64,000 bases of DNA from Psammoneis japonica (GCA_008632985.1 QPGO01000281.1:1-64000); one strand, 5' to 3'. Positions 12,214-53,022 are shown, counted from the stretch's first letter. The notes: generated by a model not told the origin, from the letters alone. Made by a program: numbers and translations.

Positions 12214-12517
12214 GAAGATGTGATGATTTGGTGTCCAGCTCATCCAGGAACATTCGCGCCAATGGCGCCACTTCACCTGGCATTCGTTGGACATGGAAAT
12301 GGCAAAACACATTGAGGTGGTGATCACAGTGACAACCAATGAAGTCGGGAAGATGGTCGGACATAAAAACACGCAAGGCGACAAGCCGGTTCCTCACAAA
12401 GAGCAGCTCCCCGCCAATGATTGAGCCACATTGATGCATGTCAAGTCGAGCGATTGTCCCATTGGCATGCCTCATCAAGTTGCGGTTGCAGCTTTTTGCA
12501 GGTGGAGAACAGACATG

Positions 12518-25019: not shown

Positions 25020-26273
25020 CTACAACTCTCTTGAACCAAGCCAACAATCATCATCAGACTCGTCTTCATTGGACTCATCTTCATCGGACTCGTCTCCTCC
25101 ATCGTTCATTTTGCCTTTTGCGCCTTCCTCCTGCTCATCGTCATCACTGTTGTCATCCCTGCTGCTCTCCACCATTGGGCTGTTCATTGCCTTCACCTTC
25201 TCCACATCACCGGTCGGTGCTGTCTTCTTCTTTTTTGCTTCTCCGGACTTCTCGCACTCGCTTTTCTTGATCTCCGCATGCCACTTTTCAAACTCCTTGC
25301 CCTCCTTGGAGTCTCTGTCTTTCATCACCTCTTTGCACAAATCGTTGAACCGAGTGATTCCGTCGTCTCCCCAAGACACTCGTTGTTTCTTTGGCTTCGT
25401 GTGCCGAGGGGCAGGCCTTCTTGTTTTTTCGGGCTCCATTTCCTCACCCAATTCTTCCACCGCCTCCTCCTTGTTCCTGCATGCCCACACCTGCCAACAA
25501 TTCTCCACAGCTGATGGTGCCAAAGCTTCGTCACCCACCGTAAACAACTGTGAGACCTGTGCATTCCCAGTTTTGATGGTGCTGCTCCATGCCTGCTTTT
25601 GCTTGGTTTGAGGTAGGATGTGATCACAGAACCACTTGCGTGCCTGCTTGTTCCTTCATTTGCCGCCGGCGACAGTGTCCAGGCCAAACGGATCCCATGT
25701 CGGCACAAACGGGATGTCATTCTCTTCATTCTTGTCATGGCTTGACTTTTTCCTGCTTTGCTTTTTCCTCCTGTCTGCCACCTTGAGTTTCTTTTCTTTT
25801 TCCTTTCCCTCTTCCTTGGTGACAACGCCAGTGCAGACAAAGCATCACCGTCATCTTCTTGTGAGATGCGCGCAACTCTCGAATCACACACATTGGTCAC
25901 TTGGCTTGCGGGCCATTGCCTCTGCCCCAATGGCCGAACACACCGTGTTTCTGCGATTGTCAATTTGCCTTTTTACCGCCTTTTTTGCCCATTCCTCCCA
26001 AGTTCCTGACCAATTTGAAGTGTCCATGTTGCCACCAGCAATCTGTTTCTTGACAAACATTGAGACGCTCCCATTGCTCGCCAATTCTGATGGACTGAGA
26101 AACTTCACCTGTGGAAAGAAATCATTTCCAGCCACCTTCTCTGCTTCTGATTTCAGTGCACCATGCGCTGCCTGCGCACCTGTTCTCTTCAACACTGCCT
26201 GAAGTCTCGGGCTCATTGGCTCAACAGTCTCATTTTTCTTTCTCTTCTTTGCCTGTGGTGCTGGAGACGACAT
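25020..26273 (-). pseudogene. Second ORF of element 2, probably spliced
   Basis: ORFs 25884..26273 (…FFPQVKFL…W…AVKRQIDNRRN) and 25020..25547 (…DEALA…VENCW…W.DDGITRFNDL…DR). Confidence 0.5.
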
Positions 26274-26639
26274 CTTGATCTTTGCACGGCAACAATGAGA
26301 GCAGTGTCACTGTTCAACAGTGCAACCGTCGTCTGGGTTGTGTTGAGACAGACAGCCACTCTGTTTTTCTCTGTGACATTGCACAAATTGTTGTCAGCAA
26401 CAATGAACAGTTCAACTCACTTTTTGATGTGGCTGTCATTGTGTTTCAACGGAGACAACATCCTTTGTTTTGACAGCAAATAAAAAAGAACAATGTTCAT
26501 TGTAAATGCCAGATAAAAAATCAAAATGCAGACACATCACACCCATGAGAATCATCCAAATCTTGAAGACAATGTAATGTTTGCCATTTTCCCGCCATTT
26601 TTTACGTGTTGTTCTTCTTTTCCCTTCTCATCCACTCTG

Positions 26640-26950
26640 CAAGGACGACGAGTGTGAGTCTTGATGAAGGCCCTGTCAACATTGACCAGAGAACTGTGAG
26701 GCAACGGCATCAGCATGCAGACTTGGTCAGTCGCTGGCAGCTTGGTCACAAACAAAACAACTGGCTTTCAACGCCTGAGAAGACTCAGCACTCACCCAAG
26801 TTACGGGTTGTCCCCATTGAAGCAATTGGGGACAATGTTTTGGTTTATGAAGAATGTCCAGGAGCAGCAGAAGCGCAAGAAAAGGCCCCATTTGTTTGGG
26901 CCACACAGGACAGAAGGAAGTGTTGGTCAGATTTGTTTCTAAAATGGGGT
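26640..26950 (+). pseudogene. Possible C-terminal remnant of the element 2 transposase
   Basis: LVSRWQL…PKLRVVPIEAIGDNVLVYEE.P…WSDLFLKW parallels the C-terminus of the element 1 transposase (…WAKMFCEW) and lies in the syntenic position. Confidence 0.4.
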
Positions 26951-26965
26951 GCGTGCATCAATCTG

Positions 26966-29900: not shown

Positions 29901-31100
29901 AGGGAGGCGGCTGAAGAGGTGGCAAGAAGAACAGAAGAATTGGAGACAAGAAGAGGAGCACAAACAATCAATCAAACAATGTGATGGATTCATGCCATTT
30001 GGATTTTTTCGTTTCCGAGCATTTTTCGCAATGGATGGAATTGCGTTGCTGATTTCTTTCTTCTTGCACTGAGTGGCAAAGTCACGAAGCCTGGCTTTCC
30101 ACACAGCCTCAAAACGATCCCTTGCAGCCTTGCTTTTGCCGGAATCGTCAGCGGCAGAAACCACACGATCAATTTTCACACATCTTAAAAGAGTCTCACA
30201 GACATGTGTTGCGCACATTTGTTCTCGCTCAACATCGAGCATCGCCAGTCGCACAGGCTTTTCCCAAGAATTTTTGTGTTGGTGGAACAACGACTTTACG
30301 AATTCAGGGAAGGACATGGGGCACTCGTCTTTGGTCGTCTCATGGTGACCAAGAGCCAGGAAATTCTCCAAAAAGTTGATGCAAGTCAATGTCTCATCAC
30401 ATTCGCCGAACAGGGAGTGCAGCCAACAATCGCAATCACCATTCCTTTCAGGTGCGTGCGGTGGAAATCTTGTCACAAAGAATCAAAAAACCAATGTGAA
30501 GGTGTTGCGCGCAACGCAAAACCTTCCCTTCAAAACTTCTCAGCTTGATGTGCTTGACAAGTGGCTCTCCCTTTGGGTTGCACAATCTGGGATCATGGAG
30601 AAGCTTGCACAACATGGAAATCTTTGCCATCATGTTGGCTGCAATGTCTGTTGATTTTGCCTTGTCGCCGACGACTTTCACATCCTCCACTTTGGGAGCA
30701 CGGCGACACTCCAACGCATGAGGATGTTTGGCGCCTTGACTGGAGTGACTACATCCTTTTCCGGAAAGAAAGTGCAGCAAGCTCTTGCACCCAAGTTCCT
30801 TTGCAACAATGCGGTTCACAGCCATTGGTTCTACAAAAAAATGAGGTCTGCCCTTCGACTTTTGCCACACACAGGCAAGCACGATCCAATTCGGAGAGGG
30901 ATCATAAGTGAAAGTGTGGTGAAACTGAACCTTGGATTTCACCGTCTTGATTGTCGCTTTGACACGGCTCCGCTCATTGCTGTTGATCACTCCAAAACCA
31001 CTGGCAAAGAGAGATTCAAATGCGGCCTCCTCGAGGTGGGAATCATTGTTGTCTTGCGACACGGAGGTGACCGACAGGTCGCGCGGCGCCATGGTTGCTG
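26966..31100 (-). pseudogene. Accessory ORFs a and b of element 2
   Basis: Homologous to 7740-12213 through the motif blocks listed for those features. Confidence 0.6.
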
Positions 31101-32249
31101 TTCCAACAACAAAAAATCTGGTTTCTGCAGAAATGTGCCAGAGTGGTGTGTGGGAGAAGTTGCATGCGCGCCTGGTGCGATTTGGAGTTTTAAACACAAA
31201 AACCTGCCAGACGCGCATGTGACTTCTCCCAGGGAAATCCTGCGTGAGATCATGCCGGGAAAAAGCAATGCGGAGTGCAGAATTGATGGAAGAAAATGTT
31301 GTGCGGAACAGCATCAGAGAAAGGGTGCATGTGCTGGAAAACAACATGGATTTCTGCACGCGCGTCAAGGCACGTGAAAAACATGTGGGTGCCTTCAAGT
31401 GACGCATGCGAACAATCACAAAGAAACATTCAGAAATGGAGACAGCACAGAGAGAAGTCAGAAACATGGATCCAAAACAAAGTGACACAACAGAAAAAAA
31501 AAACAACAACAAGAGCTGAAGGCGACGGTGACGGGATCAATGAAAAAGAAGGATTCGGATGGAAAGACGCCAGAGACGGTGAAAACAGGTGGCGCCAAGA
31601 CGAAGAAGGAAGAGAAAAATGGGATGGGAAAAATGAAGAAAGAGAAAAAGAAGCAGACGACATGACATCAAGAGGGGAGCGGTGATGCGATTCTGCATTT
31701 CGAGGGACCTCTTCCTCTCAATGATGTTTGCCCAAATGCAAGAAATGCAGTGTGGCTTTTTTGGAACGGTGACAAGGAAACATCCAACGTGGCAGTGGCA
31801 CATTTGAAATTCTTGCAAGAGAGCGGACAAGACACATGGAATGAAGAGGACGATGCAGACAACCAGGCAAATTGGAGCACAGTTGTTGATTGAACAATTG
31901 GCGCACACTTCACATGATGAAAATTTCATTGCACGCAACTGCAATGTTTGGCTTGTCGTCAAAGATCATCAGTTGTTGTGAAAAAGGCAGAGCACAAAAA
32001 TTAAAAAACATCTGTGTTCAAACATGAAGAACAGCAGGAGATTGATGACCAACTGAATGACAAAAACTGTCATGTGCAGACAAGTGGATTTTACAATGTG
32101 GCAACACATTTTTGTCATGTGTGCAAACATTGCGATGTCGTGCACTCTGATGGAGTTGCATGATGCAAACACTGGCAACACAAATTTGACCGTCACTGCA
32201 CTTGATTGAAGCGATGTTGACTGGTGGGTTTGGCTTGATCAGATGAAAT

Positions 32250-33518
32250 TTGACATCTGCGGTCAATCCCAACTTTCTAAAACCAAAAGACATCACTTCC
32301 GTGGTTGATCTTTCCAGTGTCAACTGCTGTGCAAGGGAGTGTCACAACAACAGCGCGCTTGAACAGCATGACTTTTGCCCTCCTGAGCGAGTTCGTGATT
32401 TCACCCAGGTGCTTTTCAATCTTTTTCAGATGTGATTTCAACCCCAATCACCTTGACTCACTTTTGTGATTCCTTTGTCCGTCTTTAGGTTGATCTTGGC
32501 TGTGCCATGGCAGATGACCCTAGTCTGGGTGTTCCAATTGGAACCCCGTGCGCCAACATTCAGATGCTGGAAGATGTGCAGTGCACAGGAGAACCTGTCC
32601 CGGGTCCACTCACAGCACTCACGTTCGAGCACAAGTCGGCCCCTTGCCAACAGGATTCTCCCTCAGGCGGCGGATGCATTGGTGCTGGAGATCTAGCATG
32701 TTCACAAATTTCTGCAAGAGAAGCTCTCTGTGAGGGTGACGGTGACACGTTTTTCACAAATCTTGTTTCAAATGGTGATCAAATTCCCATTGATGATGGC
32801 ATGGCAGCGTTGCCCTCCAGCATCGCATGTAAATTCTTTCTTCCTGGGGGTGGCACGGAGTGTCAAACCGTGGCTGTTGACACAGCTGGAGAGAGTGGGA
32901 TCCTCAGTCTCCCCACTGGGTTTGGTGGCCTCACGACAAAGCAATGCACAGTGGGGACAGGAACTGTGAAGAGCTGCCCCATTGCTGTTGTGTGCACATC
33001 GGAGGTTGTGAACATTGCGGACACGAATTTGACGATCAATGAGTTTCTTTTCGAAATCAATGCGGAAGCAGAACAAGATTTGCTTCCCGGCGCCAGCACC
33101 ACAACCATTGAACCAGGTCAGAGTTCCGCAGCGGTTGGCCCGATTGTTGTGGACCATTGTGTGGACCAGTGCTGCGATGCCTCCATGACGATTGAAGTTG
33201 AAGACACATGTGGCACAGTCAAGAATGACAAGGACGACGACAATTTCTGCGTCGTTTTCGACTCCATTGAATTTTCCTTCTTTGACGGCACTCCTGCTCC
33301 TTGTGACCAACTCGTCATCCCGGACAGCCGAAGATGTGCCACTCCAAGTCCTGCCAATTGCATTGGTTTGTCAACGCTTTCAGTCCAGGATGTTTCTTGC
33401 AAAGAAAGCGAAAGCCAAAACAGCCAAGTCACCGATGCATGCGATGACTTTGCTGATGTGGGACTCGAAGGGGAAACATTCCTTGTCACGTGTGGCACCG
33501 CTCAGGCTGACACTCTAA
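32250..33518 (+). pseudogene. Gene A copy 2, 5' part (TpA-depleted); continues in 33872-33920, 52001-52029 and 53023-53459
   Basis: Phase-0 intron 32409-32488 (GT…ttttAG-type). ORF 32507 onward aligns to A3 and A1 (KNDKDDDNFCVVFD, LSVQDVSCKESESQN). Removing four insertions restores …IRDV.L.EPFEFDIGDDCPTERIQCKVYNP. Confidence 0.85.
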
Positions 33519-33868
33519 CGGCACACTGAATTAAAGTCGCGCATTGGGCGCACCCTCCAGCGAAAAGTGGGGGAGGGAGGGCAATGGTGTAAAACCATGT
33601 CAATCTGTAAAACACGTGCTTTGTCGTGCAAAACACATGAATTGGCTCGCTGCCTTGTGTCTGCACAGGATTCTACATGAGACCTGTCCGTCGTGCACCG
33701 GGCCGTGTTCGATTCCCTCGTCTGGCCGCCGGATGCACATTTTGACTGTTCATGCGCGCCAATTGCATGCGCGTTTTACAGAAACGTCCATTTTGCAGAT
33801 CTGGCCATTCGGGGGCAAAAGTGGGGTGAGGGCATGTGCCCAATGTGCGACTTTAATTCAGCGTGCCC
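33519..33868. mobile_element. 350-bp PIF/Harbinger-type MITE
   Basis: ~35-bp TIR (ggcacactgaattaaagtcgc / gcgactttaattcagcgtgcc). TSD is TAA (33516-18) on the left and CAA (33869-71) on the right. Interrupts the gene A exon. Confidence 0.85.
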
Positions 33869-35422
33869 CAATCAGAGACGTCTGTCTTTACGAACCATTT
33901 GAATTTGACATTGGAGATGACACTGCAAATGAGAGCCACTCTGAACAAGCTGTTTTTGCTCTAAACAAAAAACAAACAGAGCATTTTGCTCCGATTGCAA
34001 GTGCCAAATGATTGGTTGTGGCTTTGCTCTATTTGAGCCACAGCCAGAGCGACAGAGCAAAGTGCCGACATTTGCCCTGTTTGACCGCATTCAGAGGATG
34101 CCTTCAATTGAGTCCAATTCTTCAGGGCATTCGCTCCAAACAACTGCAGCCTCCTGCGACCTTTTACATTCTCAGAGCAAATGGTTTTTTTTCAAAGCAA
34201 ATGAACAATGAACATGTGCACACACAACAAGACGCAATGATGGACGATTCAAAGCGCCATTGGCGCACATGCACGCGTGCATTCATGGTTGCATGTCAAT
34301 GCTCGTCATCTCATTTTTGTGTGTGGCGATCTCGACGAGCATCGTTGTTGCTCCATCATTGTCGCCCATGTCGGCACATCACACACACAACACAATTTTT
34401 GCATTTCCACCTTTGTCCAAGTCATGGCCTCCACAGCCTTCTCCACATGCTGCAAACATTGCTTCTTGACTGTTCCATTGACTCAATGTGACAACTCCAA
34501 CAGCAAATTCCGACCTCGACCTGCAGCGCTGTTCAGACAGTCTGCGTTCCCTGGATCTGTTGTTTGGATTTGACCACAACCAACCTGTGGAACTTTGATC
34601 AGGTGATTCGGATCTTTGATGAATCAAGCGACCCGGCGGATCTCTTGATGGACGCACACTCCTCCTTCTTCCCTTGGGAGCGCCGGATCTGCTCCAAGCA
34701 GGAGCGTCACATGGACCTTTTCTGTGATGCATGGATGGGTGGAATTTGAGCAAGCAGATGCTGCAATGAAAAACAATGAGAGCAGCACAGCTTCACAACT
34801 CCTTTGTCACACGCAAGAGAATGTGATCGTGCGATGATGATGTCGCCTTTGTGTGGTCGTGATTGAGAGATGCATGTTGGGTGAGTCAGAACATCGGAAT
34901 CCGGAATTTTGCATGTCATCCCCTGTCGCGCGGCCAACTGGTTGTGGCCGCCTGCAGTGCCACAAACAGAACACCACAAAAATTCTGCACTCATCACAGA
35001 TTTTAACAAGAAAGTGAGTCCCCTCTTTTCCACAACATCACTGCATTTGCCGCATGTTGCAATGACACAAACAGCGGAAAAGCATGCATCCACAACACCG
35101 CTGCTGACACCGCTGTTGTCGTCAAACTTTGCTGTTCATGCAATGCCATTGTCGTTCATCCTTCCATTGCATGTTGTCATTTTTATCAACTTGTTAACAA
35201 GTGTTGACAATGTTGTGACCTTTGGCAAAGGATCATTGCAAGACACCACCAGAACAGAACCTGCAACGCTGCTGCAAGAACAATGCTGAGCTCACGGCAC
35301 AGTCTGTGCGTTGTTTCTTCACCTCGCATCTCAGATGATTTGGTGTGCATGCTGCACTTCGTTGACTCTTTACAATCATCATCAGGCACTGCAACGAAAT
35401 TGGTCACAGACAAAGTCAGCAA

Positions 35423-36928
35423 CTTCCCTGTGTCTCCGCGTCTGCTGCTGAGAATTGCACAGCAACGGACGAGTGGGACTGCCAGTCCGTCGCCCAGCGA
35501 CATTCCGCCAATCAGTTTTCATGACAAGACCTGGAGAACTGGCTGGGGCACCCTCGTTGTGTTGCACAGTTTGAAGAAAAGAGGACCGGCTGATCTGGGT
35601 TGTGTTGGCAGACGGCGCAAGCTCATTTCTCCTTGACATTGGCAAGAACACACACATTCCAGAGTCACTTGTCGGTGGATCGTCTCCGTCTTTGACATCT
35701 CTTCCCTGTGTCTCCGTGTCTGCTGCTGAGAATTGCACAGCAACGGACAAGTGGGGCTGCCAGTCCGTCGCCCAGCGATGTTCCGCTGATCGGTTTTCAA
35801 CAACAAGACCTGGAGAACTGGCTGGGGCACCCTCGTTGTGTTGTGCAGTTTGAAGAAAAGAGGACCGGCTGATCTGGGTTGTGTTGGCAGACGGCGCAAG
35901 CTCATTTCTCCTTGACATTGGCAAGAACACACACACTCCAGAGTCACTTGTTGGTGGATCGTCTCCGTCTTTGACATCTCTTCCCTGTGTCTCCGCGTCT
36001 GCTGCTGAGAATTGCACAGCAACGGATGAGTGGGACTGCCAGTCCGTCGCCCAGTGATGTTCCGCCAATCGGTTTTCAACAACAAGACCTGGAGAACTGG
36101 CTGGGGCACCCTCGTTGTGTTGCACAGTTTGAAGAAAAGAGGACCGGCTGATCTGGGTTGTGTTGGCAGACGGTGCAAGTGGATTTCTCCTTGACATCGG
36201 CAAGAACATGTGCATTCCAGAGTCACTTGTTGGTGGATCGTCTCCGTCTTTGACATCGCTTCCCTGTGTCTCCGCATCTGCTGCTGACAATTGTGCAGCA
36301 ACGGACAAGTGGGACTGCCAGTCCGTCGCCCAGCGACACTCTGCCAATGGGTTTTCAATGACAAGACCTGGAGAACTGGCTGGGGCACCCTCGTTGTGTT
36401 GCACAGTTTGAAGAAAAGAGGACCGGCTGATCTGGGTTGTGTTGGCAGACGGCACAAGCTCATTTCTCCTTGACATCATCTCCATCTGTCATGTCTCTTC
36501 CCTGCATCTCCGCGTCTGCCGCTGACAATTGTGCAGCAATGGACGAGTGGGACTGCCAGTCCGTCGCCCAGTGATGTTCCACCAATCGGTTTTCAACAAC
36601 AAGACCTGGAGAACTGGCTGGGGCACCCTCGTTGTGTTGCACAGTTTGAAGAAAAGAGGACCGGCTGATCTGGGTTGTGTTGGCAGACGGCGCAAGCTCA
36701 TTTTTCCTTGACATTGGCAAGAACACACATGTTCCAAAGCCACTTGTCGGTGGGTCGTCTCCGTCTGTTGTGTCTCTTCCCTGCATTTCCGCATCTGCTG
36801 CTGAGAATTGCACAGCAATGGACGAGTGGGACTGCCAGTCCACCGCCCAGTGATGGCCCACCAATCAGTTTTCAATGACAAGACCTGGAGAACTGGCTGG
36901 GGCACCCTCGTTGTGTGGTGCAGTTTGA
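35423..36928. repeat. 279-bp tandem repeat, about 5.4 copies
   Basis: Anchor gaagaaaagaggacc at 35573, 35852, 36131, 36410 and 36648 (one unit has a 41-bp deletion). Partial last unit. Confidence 0.95.
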
Positions 36929-37687
36929 TGCAAATGAGGCGAGGACTCACCTGCGATGTCAGGGGACAATGGAATGAAAGCTCTTGCCAAAGCGGCTGTT
37001 GTTGCATCCCAAGAAGAGAAGGAGGAAATTCCGGTTGTCACAGGAGGAGAATGACCACAATTCCCAGGAAGAAGATGTGGAAGAAGAGGAGGAGGAAATG
37101 CGGCTGTCAGAGGAGGAGAAGGAAATCTGTGAATTCCAAGGAAAAAGACAATGATGCTTCTCAGGAGAAGGAAGATGTGGACTCTTTGCCAAAATCATCA
37201 AAATCCAAGGAGGGGGACATTCAAAACATTCCTCCCAAGCTCCGGCATTTCGTGACTTCAATCAAACATGACATGTCAAAGCGTGTGCAGGACAATGTCC
37301 ACCGCACTTGTCCCTTGTTTGCCGTGGTCAACCCAAGCACAGAACCAAAATTACTGACTAAATTGGCAAATTCTGGACGCGGGCCAAATGATCGCGGGAA
37401 GAAATGCTTTTTGTTGCATCACAACCAGAAGGGGTTGTCATCTGACTTCTGCAAAGAAGGAATTAAAAAATCAAGGGCAGCTGCAAAGGATTTTCTTCTT
37501 CGTGAATTCAATCAAGAAAACGAAGGCGACATCATCGATTTGTTGAACAACAAACACACTCACATTTTGGGAATTTGTGCAGTGCCAAAAAATGAAGAAA
37601 TCGGCAAACTGGGTGCGCATCTTGTCGCTGCATTGTTGTGTCAGTGCATTGAATTGGTGCCAGCAACAATTGTTGACTGTGTTCGAG

Positions 37688-38893
37688 TCAACAGAGGAGC
37701 CAAAGTCCACAACCATGGGTTTGATCTGCAAAATGACTGAGCAATTTATGGATGCCACTCATTTCCTCGTCGGTGCACAGGTGTGCGTTTAACCAACAGC
37801 GGCATCCATCAACAATGCATTGGCTCACAAGAGGCTTTGTCCACTGATCGTGCTTTTGGACTTTCACATTGTCCAATGGGGTGGCACAAAGCAGGGGAAG
37901 GAAATGATTCTTGGTCGCAGGCATCAGATCACTTCGTTTCACAGGAGCAAACACAAGCAAGCCGCTGCCCCATGCATCTTGCTCTGTCACTTTGAGTTTC
38001 TTTAGGACAGTTTGTCGACGCTCGGCTGTGAGACAGAACTGTGAAGTTGCAGTCTTCCATGTCATGACAACTTCTTTACAATCCATGCCCGTGGAGGTGC
38101 CACAATTGGGAAGAGATGATGTCATGCTGCAAAACCGATTGCAATGATCGGGTTTTGCCAAAACTGTGCCAGCTTGCAGCCATTTGCCCATGGTGACACA
38201 GGCAACAGCATCAACAAAATGCTTGGGTTCAGCCAGGCATGACAGCATGCATCCACTGCATCCGCCCGTCACAATTTCGTCAACAGCAATCTCAAAGGAA
38301 TGGCGGTGAGCCAACCGACCGAGAGATTCTAGAAAATTGTCACTGGGTGTTGCGCCATTGTTTGCCAGCATTGGTTCTAAAAACAATGCAGTGATTGGCA
38401 CCTTCTTTGCAGCCTGCATCAAACAACGGAGATGAGTGTGGTTGAGACAATCGTTTTTGTGCTCACTGAGCTCCGCGGAGCTCAGAGTGCCTGGCACATG
38501 ATGCGGCAGCGCAATGGTGTGATTGCGTGTAAAAGAGTTAAAGACGTCGTCCGGATGCATTGCCATGCTCGGACCATGTTCTGCACTGAACATGCTGGCA
38601 GTCCAACAGTGGATCGGCCCATGATCACCGGCCACATGACTTCCACATGCAATCAAACATCCGTCGTTGTGCCCTCCCGTCACAGAATTGATTGCAAACA
38701 AATTTGCATCGGAGCCGTTTGGCATCACTTTGTGCAGGACGCATTCCAGGTCTAGGTGGGACCTCGCACCACTGAACTGTGACATCGATGGTTTTTTGAA
38801 TTGTGTCACATGTCGCGCATGCACATTTCTACGTGATTTTGGCGAAATTTTGTGTGATTTTACAGTGCAATGACCAGGCTGTCCATTGAACAA
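37688..38893 (-). pseudogene. Class-III PLP aminotransferase-like cargo gene
   Basis: Motifs NGSDANLFAI, ALFLEPML, AVDEIVTGG.SG and VTMGKW occur in the canonical order. Confidence 0.7.
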
Positions 38894-40393
38894 CTTTTAA
38901 CATTTTTTCTTCTATGCCATTCTCGAGTGTCTTAAGAATGGCGCAGGGCAGGCGCATTGTCCAAAACTTTGAGTACGGACAGGGACAGATGTGCAGCAAA
39001 CTTGGCTGTTTTTTTTTTATGTCAAAGACAAGTGCACACATTAACCAGACTACGAACTACAGAGCTCGCACGCAGAATTCTATGGGGCAAATGTCACAAA
39101 AAGTCCCACCCAGGACTGGAACCCGTCACAGCAGCAATTCACCATCAAAGTGAAGAAAAGTGGCTTCTTCCAACTGCTTGTGATGGCCGATGTCCATGGA
39201 AGAATTCATCAAATCTTTGCCATTGCGTTTTGAGCCACGCTGGCTGACGGCAACCAAACTGCACCCCCAATTTTTTGCCATGTCGTCCATGGCGTCGTTT
39301 GGGATTGTTCAACGTGCAAAAGAGCAAGATGCAAGATTCAAGAAGAGTCCCAAAAGATGATTGGATGGAAAAAAGGGGAGGGATCGCAGTTCTGTTGATG
39401 GACAAAAGGAGGCTCACGAAGCGCAGAGGATTTGTGAAAATGAGGTGGAGCAGCGCATGTGCTCTCAATCACCAAAAGCGCAAAACACGTGCATTCTGCT
39501 GCACTGTGCATTTGCAGACAAGCCCTGCACGCAGGGCCCCATGCATGTTCCACACGCTGAAAGAGTGGCACGCATGCGCGCATGTCCTCCCACCCAATCG
39601 TGTGATTGCACAATGCATTTCATTCAACAACGTAGATGAAGCGAGCACTTTAAAAAAGAGCACACATGAAAACTCAAACTTCAATTGTGGAAAATCATGC
39701 ATTCAAAAGTGAGCCAATGAGAACCCAATTTTTGTTTGAGGAAAATTTTGTTTCAAATGGGAGGAAAGAACAATCTTCTTAACACAACAGGTCGACATGG
39801 TTGTCAATGTTCATTTTAGAACATTGGTGCTTGATTGAAACAATGAAAAATGCAGAAAAGAGTGAAACTGAATGTGGTTCAAAAACCGTGCAATGAGAAC
39901 ATGCAACCGTGACTTTGCAATTGCACCAAACAGATTCGGCTCGTCCCGGACCATCCACAAGTGTAAAAAGTGATCAGAAGTCGAAAACACAATGACGAAT
40001 TCATTTCATCAGACACAGGTGTCGGTCGTCAGCCTTGATCTTACAAACACATCGAGGGCAGACACTTCAACAGAGGGAAACACAACCATGTCAAGGACAG
40101 ATGTTGCAACAGTGGGAAACACAGGTGGGTGTGTTTGAAATCGCAGCATGCGTTTGGAAGCTAACATTGTGATCTGACATGCAGTGGGAAGCTTCTGTGA
40201 CAAATCCAGGGGAAAAAATGACAGCACCCAATCGTCCACTGGATTGTCCAAGAGACTTTTTCCATCCGACAACAGGGGCTGACCCCGCAAGACCAGAGGA
40301 TGCTGCTCTTTTGTGGTCATGCGGAAAGGCACGTCCACAACTTGGTGAGGTGGAGACGGTGCCGCCCAATGGCAAGAAGATGCTTCAAGAGGT

Positions 40394-40778
40394 GGATGCA
40401 TTCCAGGTCCAGGTGGGACCTCGCACTGCTGAACTGTGACATCGACAGTTTTTTGAATCACGTCGCATGTCGCGCACGCAGATTTCTACGTGATTTTTTC
40501 GACATTTTGTGTCATTTTACGGTGCGCTCATTGAGCGATCCGTCCAACAACTTTTGACATTTTTTGTTGCAGCGCGATTCTACAATGTCTTAAGAATTGC
40601 GCAGGGCAGGCGCATTTGCAAAAACGTCAAGTGGTGACAGGCACAATTGCACCACAAACTTGGCCACTTATTTGATGTTGAAGACAAATGTGTCCATTGA
40701 TTAAATTCTCGCACTGCGGAGCTCGCACGTAGAATTCTGCGGGCCCAATGTCACACGGAGTCCCACCTGGGGCTGGAA
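40394..40778. repeat. Diverged duplicate of 38737-39121 (5' end of the aminotransferase-like gene)
   Basis: gcattccaggtc[t/c]aggtgggacctcgcac … agtcccacc is colinear in both copies. Confidence 0.85.
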
Positions 40779-42019
40779 TGCGTTGGTGGCACAAATCCGG
40801 TCATCCCTTTGAGGACACATCATGACTCAACACCTGGAGGGCTGTCGGAAAAATGCAATGGACAAGGGAGTGGCAATGCCATCAACAAACACCAATCCCG
40901 TCACAACAGAAGACTTCAAGAACATTCTGGCAAGCATGGACAGCACAACCAAGAATCAGCAGCTCGTGCATCAAGTTTTCCACGCCTTTCATCGCAACAG
41001 AGGATGGCTGGCTGCTGCCATTGACAAATGGTTTGCCGAAAACAACGTGAAGCTCATGCCGCACACCACGGACGCTTCCAGCAAACCTCGCAAAATGCAT
41101 CGCGATGACAGAGGCGGGTTTGCTGTGGTGGCACGCCAAGCCAAATGTCAAATGATTAAAATGTTCACGGAGTTTGTGCTGCGAAAAACAGGCTGGTGTG
41201 TGGCAACTGCAATGCACAGGAGCAACAAGGTTGTGTCGATGAAACCAGTGGCAGTGAGTTAGTCGCACATTGTTTGTTTGTCCTTTTGTTGACAAACTTG
41301 TTTGGTTTGTGACTTTGTTCCCATTTCTGGTCCTTGACAGCAGGACCAGAACACTGAAGCATCAAAACAAGTTGCTCAGGGAGCATCCAGCAAAGACATT
41401 GACATTGCATCCCTTGTGGACCTTGCGAAAACAGCAAGCATGTTGTCAGAACAAATGGGAGTTCCGCTGTCCAAGGAAGATTTGCTCCAGTCGATTCATG
41501 GCAGCATGACAGTCACCAGTTCATCCCAAATGGTCAATGAAGAGATTGTGCTTGATCCGCAACATGAGTCCAAAACTCAGGTGTCAACACTGACCATGGA
41601 CACCACGCTAAATTGCCCATCTGAACCTGCAGCAAAGTGGAAGTTAACCGAGAAGGAGAAGGAGGCAGAGCCAATTGCTTGTCGGGAACGCAATGATGAA
41701 CTAGAACCCCTCACCATGGATTTGGATGTCATCGATGGTTGGAATTCCAATGATGAAGAGTTGGCAGAAATGGTGTCACAGGTGACTGTGTGATTTGGTG
41801 GTCCAATTGCTGTGGTGTTGGATGGCTCTAACCAACTTCCGCTTTGATGCCTTGTTTGGCTTGTCAGACACAGTTGTCTGGGTCCCCTTGTTGCAGGATG
41901 GAACAAGAGCCCGGGAGCGCTGCAGCGGCAAGAAAAATGCATTGTGTCATGCGGCTGAATTGCACGTCACTCACGCTGCCATTCTTCATGCAAAAGGTTG
42001 ATGAGATGGATGAGCCAAC

Positions 42020-42570
42020 TGGTGCAAAAGAAAAGGTGAGAGCATTGTCGGTGCTCCAGCTGTCGATTTGGACTGTTGCTCTAACAGCTCTTTGGCATCA
42101 TTGGGTTGCTGGATGCCACACCAAACCATCCCAGACAGTTGAAACACTGGAGGGAGTGCAAAAAAAACAAGTGAGTGAACAGAGTTCTGAGGCTGAGCGC
42201 AACACATGGCGGATTGGATTGACCAATCACACTGCTCCTGCTGTTCTTCATGACCAGGCAAATGAGGTGGTTGACATTGGCAACAATGAAAAGGTGAGAG
42301 CATTGTCGGTGCTCCAGTTGCAAATGAAGCCATTGCTCTGACCACTTTGGGGCGTCATTGCTGGATGCCAGACTCAACCATCCCCAGTTGCTGAAATGCC
42401 AGAGAGAGCACCACAGAAGATGGTGAGACCACATTGTCTTGCAGCCAATTGTGCAATTCATCGGACATGTCTCACACAGCCATTGTTGTTTGCAATGAGA
42501 AAGGTCGAAGAGACAATGGCAAATGGTGCAAATGAAAAGGTGAGAGCATTGTTGGTGCTCCGGATTGCCA
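42020..42570. repeat. Three imperfect ~250-bp repeats
   Basis: gaaaaggtgagagcattgt.ggtgctcc at 42030, 42288 and 42534. Confidence 0.7.
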
Positions 42571-44571
42571 TTGAGAAGTTGATCTGATGGCATTCAATGT
42601 GTGTCATGACGGCATTTCTTTTGCAGACTCAACCAGCCAACCACTCTAAACCATTGTCAAATCCATTGCAAAATGGGACGGTGAGAATGCATGATGAAGT
42701 CGTGTGGATTGTGCTCAGTGTCTTGGAAACACCTCTCACTTTGTTGTTTGTTTGCAACAAAGACAAAGACAGCAAATGACAAACGCACACACAAAACTGC
42801 AACACTCGTTGTGGCTCAAGCGGATCAAACAACTGCTTGCAATTCGCAGGCACAGAGCAAACATCATTGTTGATTTGGCGTGCCTGTTGTTGTGTTGTCT
42901 TGTTCACGCACGCATGCCAATTGTGTTTGTTTGTTTGTGTTTGCAGCGCAAGTGCGAGGAGGCTCACTTGTTCCATGCCTTGGTCCATCAAGATGATGGA
43001 AAATGTTTTGCTCAAGCGCACTTCAAAACCAACCCACTGTTCCCTGCAAAGTGCTGTGGCAAAAAGTGTGATGTTGCTTTTGGATCAAGCAGTCACAAGG
43101 TTGGACAAAGAAAGGCAGTTTGGGTTTGCATGAATGCATTGAATGGTTCTTGCAATTGCAGGTTTGCATTGTGTGTGCAGTGTTGTCAAAAGACCATGTC
43201 AGCTGCATCTAACAAACGGCGCCGAAGGACGACCCGAAACAACAACAACAAACAACAAGGCAACGCAATCGCGCACGACACAACAATGTGATTGCTTGGG
43301 ATTGATTTCACCGGCACAGTCAGGGTTCGGTGGATGTGTTTGTCAACAGAGTCAATCGAAGCACAGCTTCGCAAATGACAGTTGTTCAGAGCATCAACAA
43401 ATTTGTTCAGAGTTGTGATCTGTTTAAATGGAGAGGCTGTCGTTGTCCGTTGTTCATTCAGAGCTTTGCTCCAATTAAATGGAGATTCCACGCACGGGCA
43501 TCCAAACATTGTTCAGAGTCATGCTCTGATTGAATGGACACAATCACAGCAGCACTCTGAATGTCAGCACAATGCTCTAATTTACAAATTAATGCTCTGA
43601 AAATGCAATGCTCCAAACAAAATTCCATGGCTCCGAATGACCAAATTTACTCTGATTGTGCTCTGCATGGGCGTTGTCGCCTCAACTGACTCTTGTTTGC
43701 TCTGAATGTCCCACATTGTGTCGGGACAATTTAAATGAAGCATTGCTCAGAATGAAACATTCGGAGCACAAATGAAGAGAATCTCATTTGCAGTGGACTG
43801 TCGAGAATTGCCAACTCCTCACCACGGAGATGCTCGCCAAATGCTCACCACATCTGTTTGCATCAGTCGCGCGAATGCTTCCCGCCCCACCTGACCCCCT
43901 TCACACCCTTCCTCATCAACGCCCAAATTTCGCTAAGTCGAAAATTCCACTGCGCTGCAGCGCACTGTAGAGCAACGGTGATCGATTTGAGACGTCACGT
44001 GCTGAGCCGCATGTAGAAATCTACTGAGATGACTTGATGTGTTTTTCGTGTAAGTCGCCATGGCGTCTGCGGCCGTTTCTCACAACTTCTTCCAGATTTA
44101 AAACAATGGAAGCAGCACCGTGTGACAATGTCAAGTCCACATGATCATGTCAGGTGAAGAAAATGGCAAAATGGTGTGGACTTGTGGCTAAAATGGACTT
44201 GTTGCATTCACAGGATTGTTCGTGCACCATGCAAACTCAATGCGTGAGGCAGCTAAACTAGATCCACATGATGCACCAACAAGCTTAAAGACCAACTTAA
44301 ATCTGGAGGATTTAATCGGCTCATCATTGTGCAGTTTGATCTTAGACTGAGGGGTCGAAATGGCCCGAGAAAAGGATCTAAAACTTGACAATTGACAGCT
44401 TCTGAAAAAACTCCACAAGTCTGCGATTGCAGCACTGGACAAAAGAGAAATGAACTTCACAGACCAATTGGCACACGACGGTTCGATTGCTCTTCTTTTT
44501 GTTGTCATGCGGTTGAAATTTGACGCCGTTGCGGGCCATCATTTTCATGCTCTGTGTGCCACCATGTTGTC

Positions 44572-45157
44572 TGTCATGTGGCACAAGGCCCATTGTGGGT
44601 GATTGTGGTAAATTTAAGAGTCGTTCATGAAAAGTGAGACCACAAAAGTGTAAAATTATGAAGTGAATTTCTGGAGCGGTGATCTCGCGGAATGTTCTTC
44701 TGATTCTTTCTTTTCCAGAGAAATTCTGTTCTCGTCATGTAGGAACATTCCTGGGTTCTTCTTTAAGTGTGTGTCGTCCAAGGGAACGTCTTGGGACTTC
44801 CGAGGAGGTCACGTATGGTGTCCGAAGGTGTCACGGGAAAAATCGAGAGATCCGATTCACTCTTCATCGTTTCGACCGTTTTCTTGTGAGAATCGGATTG
44901 GCTGAAAAGGAACTTGAAGTTCGGCTGAGAAATGTCTTCTCGATTTACTTGGGAAGTGATGCACGTGTCCAGTTGTTTGCCATCGCTTTCCGCACATGTC
45001 TGGTTGTTTGCTCAGGAGGAAGATGTTGGACAATTGTTCATGCAGTGTGCATGTGTCTCTTGATGTGTGCTCACACAGATGTGTGTTGGTTCTGTCCGCA
45101 GTTCTCTGTTGTTCTTTGTGACGTCACGAAGTGTCGGGTCATGAGCACGACGTGACA
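44572..45157 (-). repeat. 3' LTR
   Basis: Direct repeat of 51209-51798. Confidence 0.95.
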
Positions 45158-45180
45158 CACGCCTCCTCCAATGAATTGCA

Positions 45181-45852
45181 TCAGGGAGAGAAAGGAACGA
45201 GACGCCGTGCATTGACAGTCTCAAGGCAATTTCCTTTTTGGATGATGACAGTGCCATTGGACTTTACTTCATGTGTCTCGGCGAGTTTGGATCGACGAGG
45301 GTTGTCGTTTCGGAGAGAAACAAGGTCTCCTGCTTTGAAGTCATGGTCGTGTCGCCGAGAGTTCTCACGCACGTTGTCTGCTTGCGCTTGTTGTCGGCGG
45401 CGAGCACAAATGGTCGGCCAGTGGACGTTGCATTGCAAGGGCAGGATCACATCGCGTCCAAAAGCAAGTTGGCTGGCAGAGGCTTGCATGACGGTGTGTG
45501 CCGTCGAGTTTGTTGCCCAAGTTGCTGAGGCCATTGTCACATTCCACGGATTCGGTTGATTAAATGCGTCGGGATCATCAACTTGTTGAGCTCGTGTGCA
45601 GCTCCATGAAACATCGTGGGTCCGTTCAAGTGATAAACTCACCTGTGGACTCCGCACTGTTGTGGGTTTAGACTCAATTCCATGAGAAATTGGCAGTTCT
45701 TGAAATTCAACACCTGTAAATTCTGTGCTGTTGTCGTGTGTGCAACAGACCGGGCGCGGGAATTTACACAACCATGCTTGGTTGAATGCTCTGGCTGTTT
45801 CCAGAGCTGAGACTGTGGAGATCTGCTCCATGCCAAAATGATGAGTGGCCAG
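45181..45852 (-). pseudogene. Gypsy integrase core and GPY/F region
   Basis: WLCKFPRP…HDNSTEFTG.EFQE…GIESKPTT…PQ…ERTH; …QLAFGRD; FKAGDLV; ETVNARRLVPF. Confidence 0.85.
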
Positions 45853-47034
45853 GGACACACGGCATTTTGTCGCATTTGGTGACATTTTCTTAAATGAATT
45901 GATGATTTGTCGCGAAAAGACGCGAATTGCAACAAAATGTCCGGGTTGGCAATAAACGGGACAGAAACATTGTTCAACTGAGTCACAAAATGATCAATGT
46001 CATTGATGACCAACCTGCACTTTGGCGATGTCGTTTCAACAAGTGGGGCAATTAACAGAATTTGGTGATCGATGTCATCGACGAAATTTCATCTGACAAA
46101 ATTTGTCGGATGCGACAAAATTTGTCGTGTGAGACAAATTTTGTCGGACGTCCGACAACGCATCCGACAAGACACGACAAGACACGACACGACACGACAC
46201 GTCACGACACGTCACGACACGTCACGACACGTCACGACACGTCACGACACGTCACAACACGTCACAACACGACGACTCACGAACGAAACACCCACACCCC
46301 CCGCCGCACACGCCAACTGCTGACGTCTCCGTTGACACTGTGTCTCTTTTGCACAATGATGCAAAGCGACGATCATGCCGCTCTCGGCGGTCTCCAATTT
46401 TTTTATTTCGAAATTTTGCACTGTCACTCCATGTCCCCGAATGTCGTGCTCTCGTCAATGCCGGGACAACATCGTACGCTTCTACACAGTGGAACGGAAT
46501 GTGCCGGCATGTGTTGCTGTGCTGCACCTTTCATCAGTGGGTGGCTGGGGCCCAGCTCTCTGCTGGTCTAGCGAGCGGCAGGCAAATCTCGTGGAGACAG
46601 TGTCGCAAACATCCGTCTGTCGGCGTTTGTCGGCTCTTGTTGGCTCTTGTTGGCGTTTGTCGTACGTTGTCGGGGTTTGTCGGGGTTTGTCGGATGCGAC
46701 AAAATTTGTCGTACGTCCGACAAAATTTGTCGCACGTCCGACAAAATTTGTCGCACCCGACAAAATTTGTTGCATCCGACAAAATTTGTCGCACGTACGA
46801 CAAAATCGCCAAAACATCAATTGATGAGTGCAGTCTTCGCCGAAAGCCAAATTCATCACAAAGCACCGCAGTTGACACAACGTTTGTGTTTGGGACACGC
46901 CATCGCCAATTAAATGATGATTTTGTCTCATTTATCGCCAACGATGTAAATTTGTCTCAAAGGGCGTTTTTCACGACAAATCGTCCAATTCATCCATGGG
47001 AATGTCGCAATTGGCGACAAAATGCCGTGTGTCC
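45853..47034. mobile_element. 1.18-kb non-autonomous TIR element (Harbinger-like) inserted in the integrase
   Basis: TIR ggacacacggcattttgtcgc / gcgacaaaatgccgtgtgtcc, TSD CAG on both sides. Internal 10-bp (gacacgtcac) and ~21-bp (cgacaaaatttgtcg…) arrays. Confidence 0.85.
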
Positions 47035-49549
47035 CAGATCTGCCATCGCCGGCACCAGCAGTGAAGGCAATCGGTCTGACGGTGTCAACTGCCACCTGCA
47101 ACCAGGGGTCGATCTCAAGGGCTTGCATGTCCTTGAGAGGTGTTTTTCCATGCACTCTGCGGTTCTCTTTGGACCTTGCACAGGCCTGGCATTGGTCTGT
47201 CTTGGTCTTGACGTCTTGGGTCAGACCTTGCCAATGGCAGCACTGTCTGAGGGTCTTTTCCATCCATTGGACACCTGGACAGCGCAAATTGACATGACAC
47301 CAATTCAACAGAGGTGCTTGTAGAGTGGCGGGGATGACAATCTTGTCCTTAAAAAGGGCCAGGCGCAGGTGTCCATCCTGCACCATGCAACTGCAGTCAG
47401 ATGATTCTTTCTGACTCGGGTCGGTGCGAGCAAGTTGCAGCGCTTTTTTGCACACAGCATCATCTTGCTGTGCTTCAATGATCGTGTCAAACGAGACAGG
47501 ACAGCGAGTGTTGTCGTCATGTTCAAAGGCGAAACACTCTTCCAGCATTGGATCTGCAGCTGGTGTCTCTGGGTCACCAGTCGTGGTCGCGGCACGGGAT
47601 GAGAAATCCGCGAGCACATTTTTTGCTCCCGGCAGGTGAAGAATCGTGGGACCAAACTCCTCAACAATCAGCCGCCAACGACACACACGGTCTGATTTGA
47701 AATTTGCAAAGGTCAGATTCTTGTGGTCCGCACAAATCGTGATCCTGTGACCCAACAGGATGTCACGACACTCTCGTAGCGTCACAACTGTCGACAGCAG
47801 TTCTTGTTCGATGACGGGATGTCTTTTTTGCGTGTCAGAGAGTTTGCGGGAGTGGAACATCATTGGGCGCTTGTCTTGAATGACAACGCTGCCCAGCTGG
47901 TGTTTTGAAGCATCGGTGTAGATGTGGAACATCTCATTGAAATCAGGGCAGGCAAGTGGCGTCTCAGCAGAGATTCGTCTCTTAATTTCTTGAAACGCTT
48001 GCTCGTGTTCGGGTTTCCACTCGAACTTGACTGCTTTCGAGGTCATGCTCGAAAGAGGTGCCAATGGATGGGCACGAAGGCACAACATTTCGAGACAGAA
48101 GTTCATCATTCCGATGAAACCTCTGAGTTCTTTCTTTGTTTTGGGCGAAACCAAATTCACAATCGCGTTGACCTTCTTCGGTTGCGGTTTGATTCCGTCT
48201 CTGGCAACAATGAACCCCAGGCACTCCGTTTCTAGAGCGCAAAAGAAAGTTTTTCGCAAATTTACTCTAAAGCCTGAATCACTCAAAAGCACAAATGCTC
48301 CACGCAATTGGGCGAGGTGATCATCAAAGGATCCCTTGCCAATGATCAACAAGTCGTCAACAAAAATCAGTGCAAATTCCAAGTGTCCTAACAGGTCAGT
48401 CATGACCTCTTGGAACACATCTGGGGCTGGTGCAAGTCCCATTGGTGATCTGCAGCAAGCACATTTGCCAAACGGCAGCGCAGCAGTCAGATGTTGCTGA
48501 CACTTCTGGCTGATCCGCATTGAAAAAAATCCCATGTTCAAATCGATCGCGGTGACACAAGCACAGCCGTGCAGCTTTCGTAGCATGGTTGGCATTGAAG
48601 GCAGAGGCCACGGGCGTCGTTGCATGCATCGATTTAAAAGCCAAAAGCAGGTGACGAATCGGCAATCACCACCTTTCTTCGGCATGAACAATGAAGGAAA
48701 TCCCCAAGCTGAGTCTGAGATCCTTCTCAGAACTCCCACTCGGCACAATCTCTCTGCTTCTTCTTTTGCCATGTTGCAGTTGATCTGGGGCATGCTGCAA
48801 GGTTGACACATGATGGGCTTGGTGCTGGGCTCAAGCTCAACATTGACCGGTGGTCGCTTGACGCATTGTCCGAGCTCTCCTTGCGTGAGACTGGAGAAGT
48901 CTTCCAGCAAGGCAATGAGAGCTTCACCTTGCTCTCTTGACAAGTGGTCAGGCACACACTCCCTCAAGTCCTCCACAGGACCACAGTCATTCGGGCGAAC
49001 AGCTTTGGCCTTGGGAGCCGCCACAAGCTCTTCTCGCGTCGTCGGTTGGTGCCAAAAATCCTCGGGATGTCTCATCGGAAAGGACAAGTCATCCCAAGCA
49101 ATGACTTTTTCTTGGAAATCAAGCTTCATCCCAAGCTTGAACAGGACATCTCGTCCTGCTGCAGCATCATAGATTCCTTGCAAGGGTGAAATGTAGAAGC
49201 ACAAATCGAATTGTCGGTGCAAGGACATGTCAAGGAATCGACAACGAGTGAGTGCGACATGAGTTGTCTGATGGGTCTGCGCAAACAAGGTCTCCCATCT
49301 TGTTGGTGCTGGGGTGGCCTCATCCAGTGTTCCTTTTGAGAGCACATCTCTTTTCATTGTTGTTCGACTGCTGCCGCTGTCGAGCAAGGCAAGCAGAACA
49401 TTGTTGCTTTTGTCTCGAGTCCCATCAACTGGATCGAGCAGTTGAAGTTGCACGACACATCCGGGGTTGACCTGGAACACATGAGCCCCTTCTCGTAGGA
49501 TGTGTCCCTCCATGAGGGAACACTGCGCAGTCGCAATCGTCCATTCCAT
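47035..49549 (-). pseudogene. pol: Gypsy pol: protease, reverse transcriptase, RNase H, integrase zinc finger
   Basis: LLDSGSS; AIDLNMGF, PMGL, FVDDLL, LGF; TDASK.QLG, EQELL, DHKNL, ADFSSR; H…PG…C..C. Confidence 0.92.
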
Positions 49550-49899
49550 CTGGACACAATGCCTCCATCAACTCCTGGGCGTCTGTGCTGTTGTCATGTT
49601 CAAAAATTGATGACGTCAGAGACGCGCGCTCGTCTGCGCTGTCTACAGGATCACGCTCGTCATCGGCATCTTCTCCAAAAGATGACAGCTCGTCCACAGA
49701 CGACATGCACAAGGTTGTCGACGATGCTGCTGACATGCTGCTGTCGGCACTCCACAAATCATTGCTGTCTGTCGATGTTGATCCACCATGTGGCACAAGT
49801 TCCGGCAGGCTGGATTCGTCAGTTGTTTCCACTGTGGATCCCTGTCTTTGTTGCAGCTCAAAGTTTTCTGGCAACAGAGAACGCAGCAATTCTCTTCCA

Positions 49900-50953
49900 C
49901 GCAAGCATCACATTCTCCATCTGATTCTTCATGAGAATGGCTCGCATCGTCTTCCTGCATCTCAAGTCCATCTTCTTGTTCGCAAGGTTCAGGTTCAGCA
50001 TCATCTCTTGTGCTGAGTTGTTCCAGTTGTTCAGCTGGGGTTGTGTCTGTGCTGCTGTCCAGGTTCTGGACTGGTGGAGCTTCTTCTGGCTCGTTCACGG
50101 CACGCATTTCTTGCTGGTTCGTTCGGGCATGTCCTCTCTGTTGACCACAACCTTGAGGATGGTTCCTGTCACGCTGTAAGTTGGCTTGGCATCGAGCAGG
50201 ATGTCGATGTGTTTGGTCAGGAGGAGCTCCGGCGTTGTTGTTGTCATTGTTGCTCGGTCGCATCGCTCGGTCGCCTCCATGTCCGCACGCGGTTCGGCAG
50301 CCGTGAGTGTGGGCACGTCTCTGGAATTGCCATTGGTTGCTTGACAACCTTCTCTCTTGTTGGGCCTTCTTCTTCTGCAGGAAGGATTCAATGGTGGAAC
50401 AGCATGTCTCCAAGTCTGCCGTGCCATGCTCGCCTCTGTGTCCGACGGACAGCTGGAATCTCTCGCGCCAATCATCCGGCACAGCGTGCTCTGCTGCATG
50501 AGTCAACTCTTGGTCGGTGAGAGGGGCTCTCTCTTCTGCAGAGCCTCTCATGCAGGGCACTGGCTCATTGATTTCCGAAACTCTGGAGGTGAAATCAATG
50601 AAGGCAGACTCTCTTGGCTTGCGCACGGAGCGCAAGTGCTGTTTCTGTGCCACCGCTGAGTTTTGCGGAAGCAATCCAGCAGTGACGGTCTCCAATGCTG
50701 CACTAAATTGTTCTGGGGTAAGATCTTGTGGGTCTTCAACTAGAGCTCTGACAGCTCTTTGATGTCGGTCCTTTGTGCAGCCTTTGGTTGGGCACAGCAT
50801 CTGGCAATGGAGGGCTGGTCCAGCGGTCCAGTGCTTGAGCTTTCTTGGCTCATGAAAGTTCTTTAAGAACACTGGGTGCTTCTCCTTGTTGGAGGCATCA
50901 CACTGATGGATGTAGAATGCCACAGTGTCTTCCGGGTCTCCCAGGTCAGGCAC
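49900..50953 (-). pseudogene. gag: Gypsy gag-like ORF
   Basis: Lies between the 5' LTR and pol. QKQHLRSVRKP…F..RV.EINE…AVPDDW…F pattern. Confidence 0.7.
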
Positions 50954-51208
50954 AACCTTGCACTTGATTGGGTTCGCAACGTCGTCCGCTGCATTTGGGG
51001 TGCGACTTGTGTGACTTCACAATCGCTTGACTGGTCATGTTCTCCTGTGCTGTGTGAGCATCATCTTGAGGCAATGCTCTAAAGTGCCATTCTTCAGTTC
51101 CGTCGAACTGGGGGCTGCATGCGTGGGCTTTCTTCGCCTTGAGCAGAATGCTCAGTGCTTTGCTGAGAGGCGGCATCATCACAATGACACGCCACTGTTT
51201 GATCAAAG

Positions 51209-51798
51209 TGTCATAGTGGCACAAGGCCCATTGTGGGTGATTGTGGTAAATTTAAGAGTCATTCATGAAAAGTGAGACCACAAAAGTGCAAAATTATGAA
51301 GTGAATTTCTGGAGCGGCGATCTCGCGGAATGTTCTTCTGACTCTTTCTTTTCCAGAGAAATTCTGTTCTCGTCATGTAGGAACGTTCCTGGGTTCTTCT
51401 TTAAGTGTGTGTCGTCTAAGGGAACATCTTGGGACTTCCGAGGAGGTCACGCATGGTGTCCGAAGGTGTCACGGGAAAAATCGAGAGATCCGATTCGCTC
51501 TTCATCGTTTCGACCGTTTTCTTGTGAGAATCGGATTGGCTGAAAAGGAACTTGAAGTTCGGCTAAGAAATGTCTTCTCGATTTGCTTGGGAAGTGATGC
51601 ACGTGTCCCGTTGTTTGCCATCGCTTTCCGCACATGTCCGGTTGTTTGCTTGGGAGGAAGATGTTGGACAATTGTTCATGATGTAGCATGCATGTGTCTC
51701 TTGATGCATGTTCACGTAGATGCACGTTGGTTCTGTCCGCAGTTCTCTGTTGTTCTTTATGACATCACGAAGTGTCGGGTCATGAGCACGACGTGACA
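51209..51798 (-). repeat. 5' LTR
   Basis: Direct repeat of 44572-45157. Confidence 0.95.
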
Positions 51799-52029
51799 TG
51801 TCGATGCTTGTTGTTTTCTGTTTTCTGGGCGTTGCCGTCAGTTTTGGTCGGTTTTGATGGGGGGGGGGGATTGTGTTTGGTTTGAAAGAGTGATGTGGCA
51901 GTTCGCATATGACGGAGAGACTGACGTAATATATTTTTAACGAAAAAGTCGTGGTGAGCATTTGGTGAGCATCTCCGTGGTGAGGAATTAGCAATTCTCG
52001 GACTGTCCAACAGAAAGGATCCAGTGTAA

Positions 52030-53019: not shown

Positions 53020-53022
53020 TAA

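Follow-up and report, generated by a model that had tools for sequence, protein, structure and literature searches.

Rapid loss of TpA from chromosomal DNA has been described in the rhizarian alga Bigelowiella natans, where hypermutation of integrated nucleocytoplasmic large DNA virus and virophage DNA was measured in mutation-accumulation lines, at hundreds to 1000-fold over background (10.64898/2026.01.13.699255). According to the main text of that preprint, the process affects two viral regions with a TA observed/expected ratio (o/e) of 0.45 and 124 small clusters, transposon domains are enriched among TA-poor coding sequences, and ADAT2/3 is proposed as the enzyme; the words 'diatom', 'LTR' (long terminal repeat) and 'CpG' are absent from that text (10.64898/2026.01.13.699255). 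Here we analysed a window of 64,000 nucleotides, one strand, from the diatom Psammoneis japonica (GCA_008632985.1 QPGO01000281.1:1-64000), in which positions 44572-51798 hold a Ty3/Gypsy LTR retrotransposon. The element is an ordinary, dead member of its class, and its mutation record alone is unusual.

The record resembles the B. natans system, as its preprint presents it, in that TpA becomes TpG or CpA on both strands of chromosomal DNA in regions of foreign origin (10.64898/2026.01.13.699255). Its host sits on a different supergroup branch from the Rhizaria, and the diatom locus further differs in its 48-kb domain at TA o/e 0.08, in the many retrotransposon families involved and in an accompanying CpG decay, and, measured against the preprint's main text, in a TA[C/T] preference and in family-specific spared zones. 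New relative to that preprint would be the reproducible spared zone of each family and the near-identical LTRs around an erased interior in two elements. A literature search returned no diatom report of TpA erasure, with most subscription journals and the preprint's supplements outside its coverage. A likeness also exists with repeat-induced point mutation (RIP) of ascomycete fungi, which, once repeats have inserted, changes both of their strands by dinucleotide-specific transitions and distorts LTR dating.

Aligned over 586 columns, the two LTRs of the window element show 28 substitutions together with a 1-nt and a 3-nt indel; three of the sites (45043-45047) adjoin the 3-nt indel and are somewhat alignment-dependent. 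Eight substitutions set TA against CA or TG, eight more fall at four double sites with TG in one LTR and CA in the other, and nine set CG against CA or TG, the remainder being two other transitions and one transversion; 25 of the 28 are transitions within pyrimidine-purine (YR) steps. An initial annotation of the locus had named eight of these differences (44651, 44779, 44814, 44927, 44947, 45118 and the doubles 45013-14 and 45066-67) and described them as concentrated at YR steps with few changes elsewhere. All eight are present in the contexts it gave, and the concentration is borne out by the column counts: differences occupy 26 of the 299 YR columns and 2 of the remaining 287 (Fisher p=2e-6). 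Among the 79 columns with TA in at least one LTR, 18 differ, as opposed to 10 of 507 elsewhere (p=1.5e-10). For comparison we used 40 other gypsy loci, selected for a long open frame among 150 scored candidates out of 476 and therefore leaning towards young elements. Three had no LTR pair and two pairs were dropped (L060, with a 67% match, and L089, with a 1.2-kb duplication extending off the locus). The 35 pooled pairs carry 599 substitutions, 484 of the TA/TG/CA type, 65 of the CG type and 50 others; 22 of the 599 are transversions.

The direction of change follows from related copies. The LTR as query had 25 matches, and six other copies with both LTRs, once aligned, supplied 12 comparison LTRs. 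At every one of the 12 TA-type sites, double sites included, the commonest state among these is TA rather than TG or CA, whose ancestry the initial annotation had named as the observation that would contradict it. It had also traced the CA-versus-TG doubles to an ancestral TA or CG; the sister LTRs uphold TA at all four double sites and leave no role for CG there. At the CG-type sites, CG is the commonest state in seven of nine. The loss of TA has marked the encoded protein as well. Set against outgroup pol proteins, the best 60 among 120 listed, the window pol keeps 2 of 20 conserved Tyr columns, the others now reading Cys (7), His (4), Phe (6) and Ile (1), and Tyr makes up 0.2% of its residues as against 3.9% in homologues.

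To describe specificity, we took the substitution spectrum from gag and the 5' LTR of five sister copies, where the majority state is reliable. TA>G occurred at 43 of 1345 opportunities, AA>G at 0 of 1380 and GA>G at 2 of 1760; CA changes (4/1440) and CG>A (2/1145) were similarly few, and A:T to G:C transitions were restricted to TpA. A following pyrimidine goes with a higher frequency of A-to-G events (0.45-0.48) than a following purine does (0.25-0.28). The initial annotation had treated mutation at YR steps as one process, a view that does not survive the comparison of sites lost. In the sisters the loss amounts to 1-5% for CG sites and to 59-84% for TA sites in pol (28-70 of 171 kept); the fast process is specific for TpA, converting it to TpG or CpA, and CpG decay is separate and slower. 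The window copy has lost 81 of 317 CG sites. If silenced DNA were instead copied or repaired by an error-prone polymerase that misinserts G opposite T at TpA, without any base modification, a different spectrum would be expected. WA motifs (W, A or T) are where polymerase eta causes A:T to G:C changes, and a mutator of WA would strike AA and TA alike. Although erased zones do have the higher non-YR divergence that collateral errors of repair would produce, we regard this explanation as improbable because AA is not hit; transversions are also rare.

The same figures bear on fungal-type RIP and on plain CpG decay, in which TA would be derived from CA/TG, or TG/CA from CG. Diatoms do possess a RID-related DNMT4 and CG methylation of transposons in the published description (PMC9998398), and CG-type sites account for 9 of the 28 LTR differences. 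TA is, however, ancestral and lost here, the opposite of RIP, which creates TA from CA/TG by C to T and requires paired repeats. We found neither C-to-T change raising TpA nor preferential hits on closely linked duplications, and linked LTR pairs may stay untouched, as in the elements C59 and L086. CpG decay is slower and unable to remove TA, and it covers only the CG-type minority (65 of 599). The decay linked to DNMT5 methylation of diatom transposons (PMC9998398) probably explains the CG-type differences that end in TG or CA. For the TA class, RIP and CpG decay are refuted, and as an account of the whole record we give them next to no credence.

Outcomes at TpA are distributed over both strands. 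TG and CA are balanced in all seven copies (p 0.055-0.93), and CG stands at only 4 of 342 TA-type sites in the window copy. The five sisters differ from one another at 3-13 of about 1598 non-YR pol sites (<1%), and 456 of 1067 doubly hit site pairs among them show opposite outcomes; a rough comparative estimate puts the TpA rate at ~200-fold over background. The initial annotation had placed the mutation in the genome after integration and not in RNA, and the differing LTR pair indeed excludes RNA editing. By itself that pair would still allow an event at the cDNA stage, which is excluded by hits on DNA other than retroelements in the same domain. A 279-bp tandem repeat at 35400-37050, in about 6 copies, has no TA and many CA/TG doubles between its units, and a DUF7467 copy at 32489-33529 has 0 TA, as against 6-8 in copies outside; inserts with inverted repeats are hit as well. 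Editing of RNA or cDNA during retrotransposition by an ADAR- or APOBEC-like enzyme is therefore hardly credible, even though a U-A context suits the preference of ADAR as cited in the B. natans preprint (10.64898/2026.01.13.699255): the changes are neither strand-biased nor limited to retroelements, the two LTRs differ, and loss in LTRs tracks the flank. A further DUF7467 copy lies at 60681-61436.

We also considered an artefact of assembly or base-calling at modified TA sites, or of polishing that mixed copies. In short-read run X1 only 0.46 of the sampled words were present, and many short-read contigs were unlike the window, with 975 of 4822 pieces reaching 99% or more; this run may derive from the sample used for the assembly or from a different strain. 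Yet contigs of 249-666 bp on the flank at 40785-41898 restored TA at only 1 of 25 differences listed, all differences listed (40 of 599) included three TG>TA, and opposite CA/TG outcomes occur within the contigs themselves. Strand-specific miscalls would, moreover, often give CG, which is as rare as stated above. An artefact thus seems very improbable.

A domain-level comparison showed that mutated DNA is confined to regions of foreign or mobile DNA, in bounded domains and in gypsy elements of several families. Outside the 48-kb domain, at whose right edge the retrotransposon lies, TA o/e is ~0.6 and CG o/e ~1.0. Across gypsy loci, the TA o/e of an LTR tracks that of the adjacent flank (Spearman 0.71, n=70), a correlation compatible with spread in either direction, and asymmetry between LTRs tracks asymmetry between flanks (rho 0.54, n=35). 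Within elements, each family has its own spared zone. In the family of the window element it comprises gag and the 5' LTR, where four sisters keep 109-115 of 118 sites and the fifth 72, while 31-72 of 164 sites are kept on the pol side; the edge of the zone lies near sister position 4050. Family A is spared from RNase H to early integrase in 8 of 10 copies, and family B in late integrase and the 3' LTR in 7 of 10. In four families the copies resemble one another in TA profile more than circular-shift nulls would give (r 0.22-0.88, p at most 0.005); the zones were picked after inspection of the data, and copies that are related lack full independence. In the gag frame, 97-102 TA sites are kept in four sisters, against 8 of 108 in the window copy, which is erased throughout; it both sits in a large domain and has lost the boundary stretch, two effects that are inseparable here. 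In run X2, long contigs cover gag and none cover pol, and C>T and G>A dominate the differences from the window (99 of 139 places), a weak but independent sign that copies have a uniform, TA-rich gag.

Three simpler rules for this pattern were rejected. Sequence context does not account for the zones, as susceptible RTAY sites (R, purine; Y, pyrimidine) were kept at 203 of 240 positions inside and 23 of 220 outside, and the contrast persists within context classes. CpG density does not differ between zones. Loss in the 3' LTR with sparing of the 5' LTR holds in four sisters (14:0, 8:0, 18:0 and 15:0) and fails as a general rule, with 15 elements for, 19 against and 3 ties among the 37 with a pair.

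These patterns bear on the dating of insertions, which the initial annotation had expected to be inflated. For the window pair the expectation is correct: its Kimura two-parameter (K2P) distance is 0.050, falling to 0.020 without TA columns and to 0.007 at non-YR sites. Four sister pairs show 0.016-0.040 against 0-0.004, and the median over the 35 pairs is 0.054 for all substitutions and 0.003 outside TA and CG steps. As a uniform rule it does not hold. The LTRs of C59 differ by one transversion and keep 33 TA each, and those of L086 are identical, although the interiors of both elements are TA-depleted. Judged from these distances, dating is inflated 2.5-7-fold for the window pair and, because such elements keep near-identical LTRs around depleted interiors, unevenly elsewhere. 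A literature search on bias in LTR dating, with most subscription journals outside its coverage, found none fitting.

We hold with high confidence to the direction, the TpA specificity, the action on both strands, the post-insertion timing, the independence of copies, the domain structure and the family-specific spared zones. As for mechanism, we lean towards a host mutator that would work on both strands of the chromosome, turning TpA into TpG or CpA within bounded domains of silenced mobile DNA, with effects that accumulate after insertion. A single hit would destroy the target on both strands, leaving TG or CA and almost never CG as end states; a slower CpG decay, probably based on methyl-cytosine, would come later in older domains. 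The chemistry would be that of a TadA/ADAT-type enzyme deaminating A to I, which is then read as G, and the whole statement, enzyme included, strikes us as somewhat better than an even proposition. Enzymes of this type meet a U-A context at tRNA position 33-34, and TadA-derived editors prefer TA[C/T], both of which suit the pattern. Targeting may combine a chromatin state spreading from the flanks with sequence-set zones in each family. Direct pairing of repeats is disfavoured because the LTR pairs of C59 and L086 are untouched and because a duplicate of normal TA content, 87-89% identical, has an ordinary spectrum; this duplicated stretch with a DUF7467 frame (427-4002 and 53020-56739) is 75-89% identical overall.

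The main rival, which we consider unlikely, keeps the same process and targeting but alters the T of TpA: a thymine modification (5-hydroxymethyluracil, 5hmU, or an oxidised derivative) would mark transposons and miscode as C. Through the symmetry of the palindrome, T>C is equivalent to the observed change, and in dinoflagellates 5hmU is enriched in transposons, reportedly replacing T preferentially in TA and TC in the source cited (PMC11572971). A preference for TC would appear here as GA>G, the class seen at 2 of 1760 opportunities. The genome gave no Tet_JBP match, but neither did control genomes, which makes that search uninformative.

Several observations weigh against an adenine-deaminating mutator with sequence-set zones. 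Since TpA is palindromic, modification of the A and modification of the opposite strand's T look alike in sequence. TadA/ADAT-like genes are present in the genome, with candidates at the C38, C79, C26 and C17 loci, yet all fall below the TadA cut-off, and they are the housekeeping tRNA editors expected in any eukaryote. Concordant outcomes exceed half of the doubly hit pairs (611 of 1067), an excess that may stem from site bias or from hits already carried by a progenitor that was mutated in part. Non-YR divergence is 2-4 times lower in spared zones, so that homogenisation, whether by gene conversion or by polishing of the assembly, may sharpen the difference between spared and erased sequence. 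Finally, pairs with more TA/CG divergence tend weakly towards more divergence at non-YR sites (rho 0.37, p=0.03), and age therefore contributes.

The anatomy of the element places it among the Ty3/Gypsy LTR retrotransposons, with which it has in common the TG...CA ends of its LTRs, a 4-bp target duplication and the order of its domains. Read on the minus strand, its pol matches the Pfam families RVT_1 (296-454), RT_RNaseH (517-638) and Integrase_H2C2 (745-801), in the order reverse transcriptase (RT), RNase H, integrase, and the gag-position frame has no Pfam match. Coordinates are collected in the table.

Table. Features of the retrotransposon and its surroundings in the window.
Feature	Position	Strand	Remark
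3' LTR, 586 bp	44572..45157	-	8 TA remaining, against 33 in untouched sister LTRs
5' LTR, 590 bp	51209..51798	-	11 TA remaining
Left copy of 4-bp target site duplication TGTC	44568..44571	.	Repeat ends and empty-site joint
Right copy of 4-bp target site duplication	51799..51802	.	Repeat ends and empty-site joint
Short purine tract, likely polypurine tract from its position	45162..45169	-	Adjoins 3' LTR
Gag-position frame, 457 aa stop to stop, named from position	49643..51016	-	TA sites kept: 8/108
Pol remnant: RT, RNase H, integrase zinc finger	47038..49567	-	Ty3/Gypsy order
Remainder of integrase, cut off from pol by the 1182-bp insert	45181..45849	-	
1182-bp insert, terminal inverted repeats, 3-bp target duplication	45853..47034	.	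Not in sisters; TA o/e 0.17
512-bp deletion point relative to sisters	49467..49468	.	Takes out the stretch where sisters pass from erased to spared
Host element with 58-nt inverted ends (43802-43859, 51943-52000) that received the retrotransposon	43802..52000	.	
48-kb TA-erased domain	4001..51900	.	TA o/e 0.08, CG o/e 0.58; edges sharp

Exact 4-bp target duplications are also found in four of five full sisters. The window copy is dead because its integrase is split by the inverted-repeat insert and 512 bp are lost upstream of pol. Short-read contigs contain the empty site, with a joint from 44567 to 51799 that skips 7231 bases; they represent either the other chromosome or another copy of the host repeat. 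We take the insert at 45853-47034 to be PIF/Harbinger-like. Both of its target duplicates read CAG where the sisters have TAG or TGG, and the site was therefore probably mutated before the insert arrived. The copy also looks mosaic: its LTRs are near those of the five sisters (3 of 292 non-YR differences), and its interior is nearer the C525 copy (in gag, 14 of 846 differences, against about 51 of 846 for the five sisters), a pattern that suggests recombination. In place of the outer end of that copy's 3' LTR stands a Tyr-rich gag-like frame of another element (L031:146-1294). An extra A at 51215, near the outer end of the 5' LTR and not in the other LTRs examined, is an insertion or an assembly slip.

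Elsewhere in the window, a second, smaller domain at 56400-60400 has TA o/e 0.06 and CG o/e 0.20 and has a 750-bp repeat in common with 22378-23129. A remnant of an aminotransferase class III gene (37688-38896, below the Pfam cut-off) is a gene-derived piece hit within the erased domain, and an element of about 1 kb with 40-nt inverted ends and normal TA content (52029-53020) lies just beyond the domain edge. A frame at 61958-63556 had no usable match in an Atlas search. The genome contains 24 silicon-transporter matches, and one named relative of the pol comes from Chaetoceros, which together mark the host as a diatom; a 1511-aa open frame at G000:C38:226311-230342 carries three silicon-transporter units.

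For the P. japonica genome, LTR divergence is no clock, and near-identical LTRs may enclose a heavily mutated interior. The findings extend a TpA mutator, measured so far in one rhizarian alga on viral inserts, to diatom retrotransposons, where it has run near to completion; sharp family-specific boundaries and the context preference provide handles on its targeting, and the pattern would point toward a natural DNA adenine deaminase. More tentatively, and as a possibility we think rather less than even, diatoms may have a natural genome defence by DNA adenine editing that is steered by sequence and either shared with the chlorarachniophytes or convergent on theirs. If so, zones repeated at independent insertion sites would call for guidance by RNA or for a protective signal inside the element, and diatoms would harbour an adenine deaminase of their own that works on chromosomal DNA at TA[C/T].

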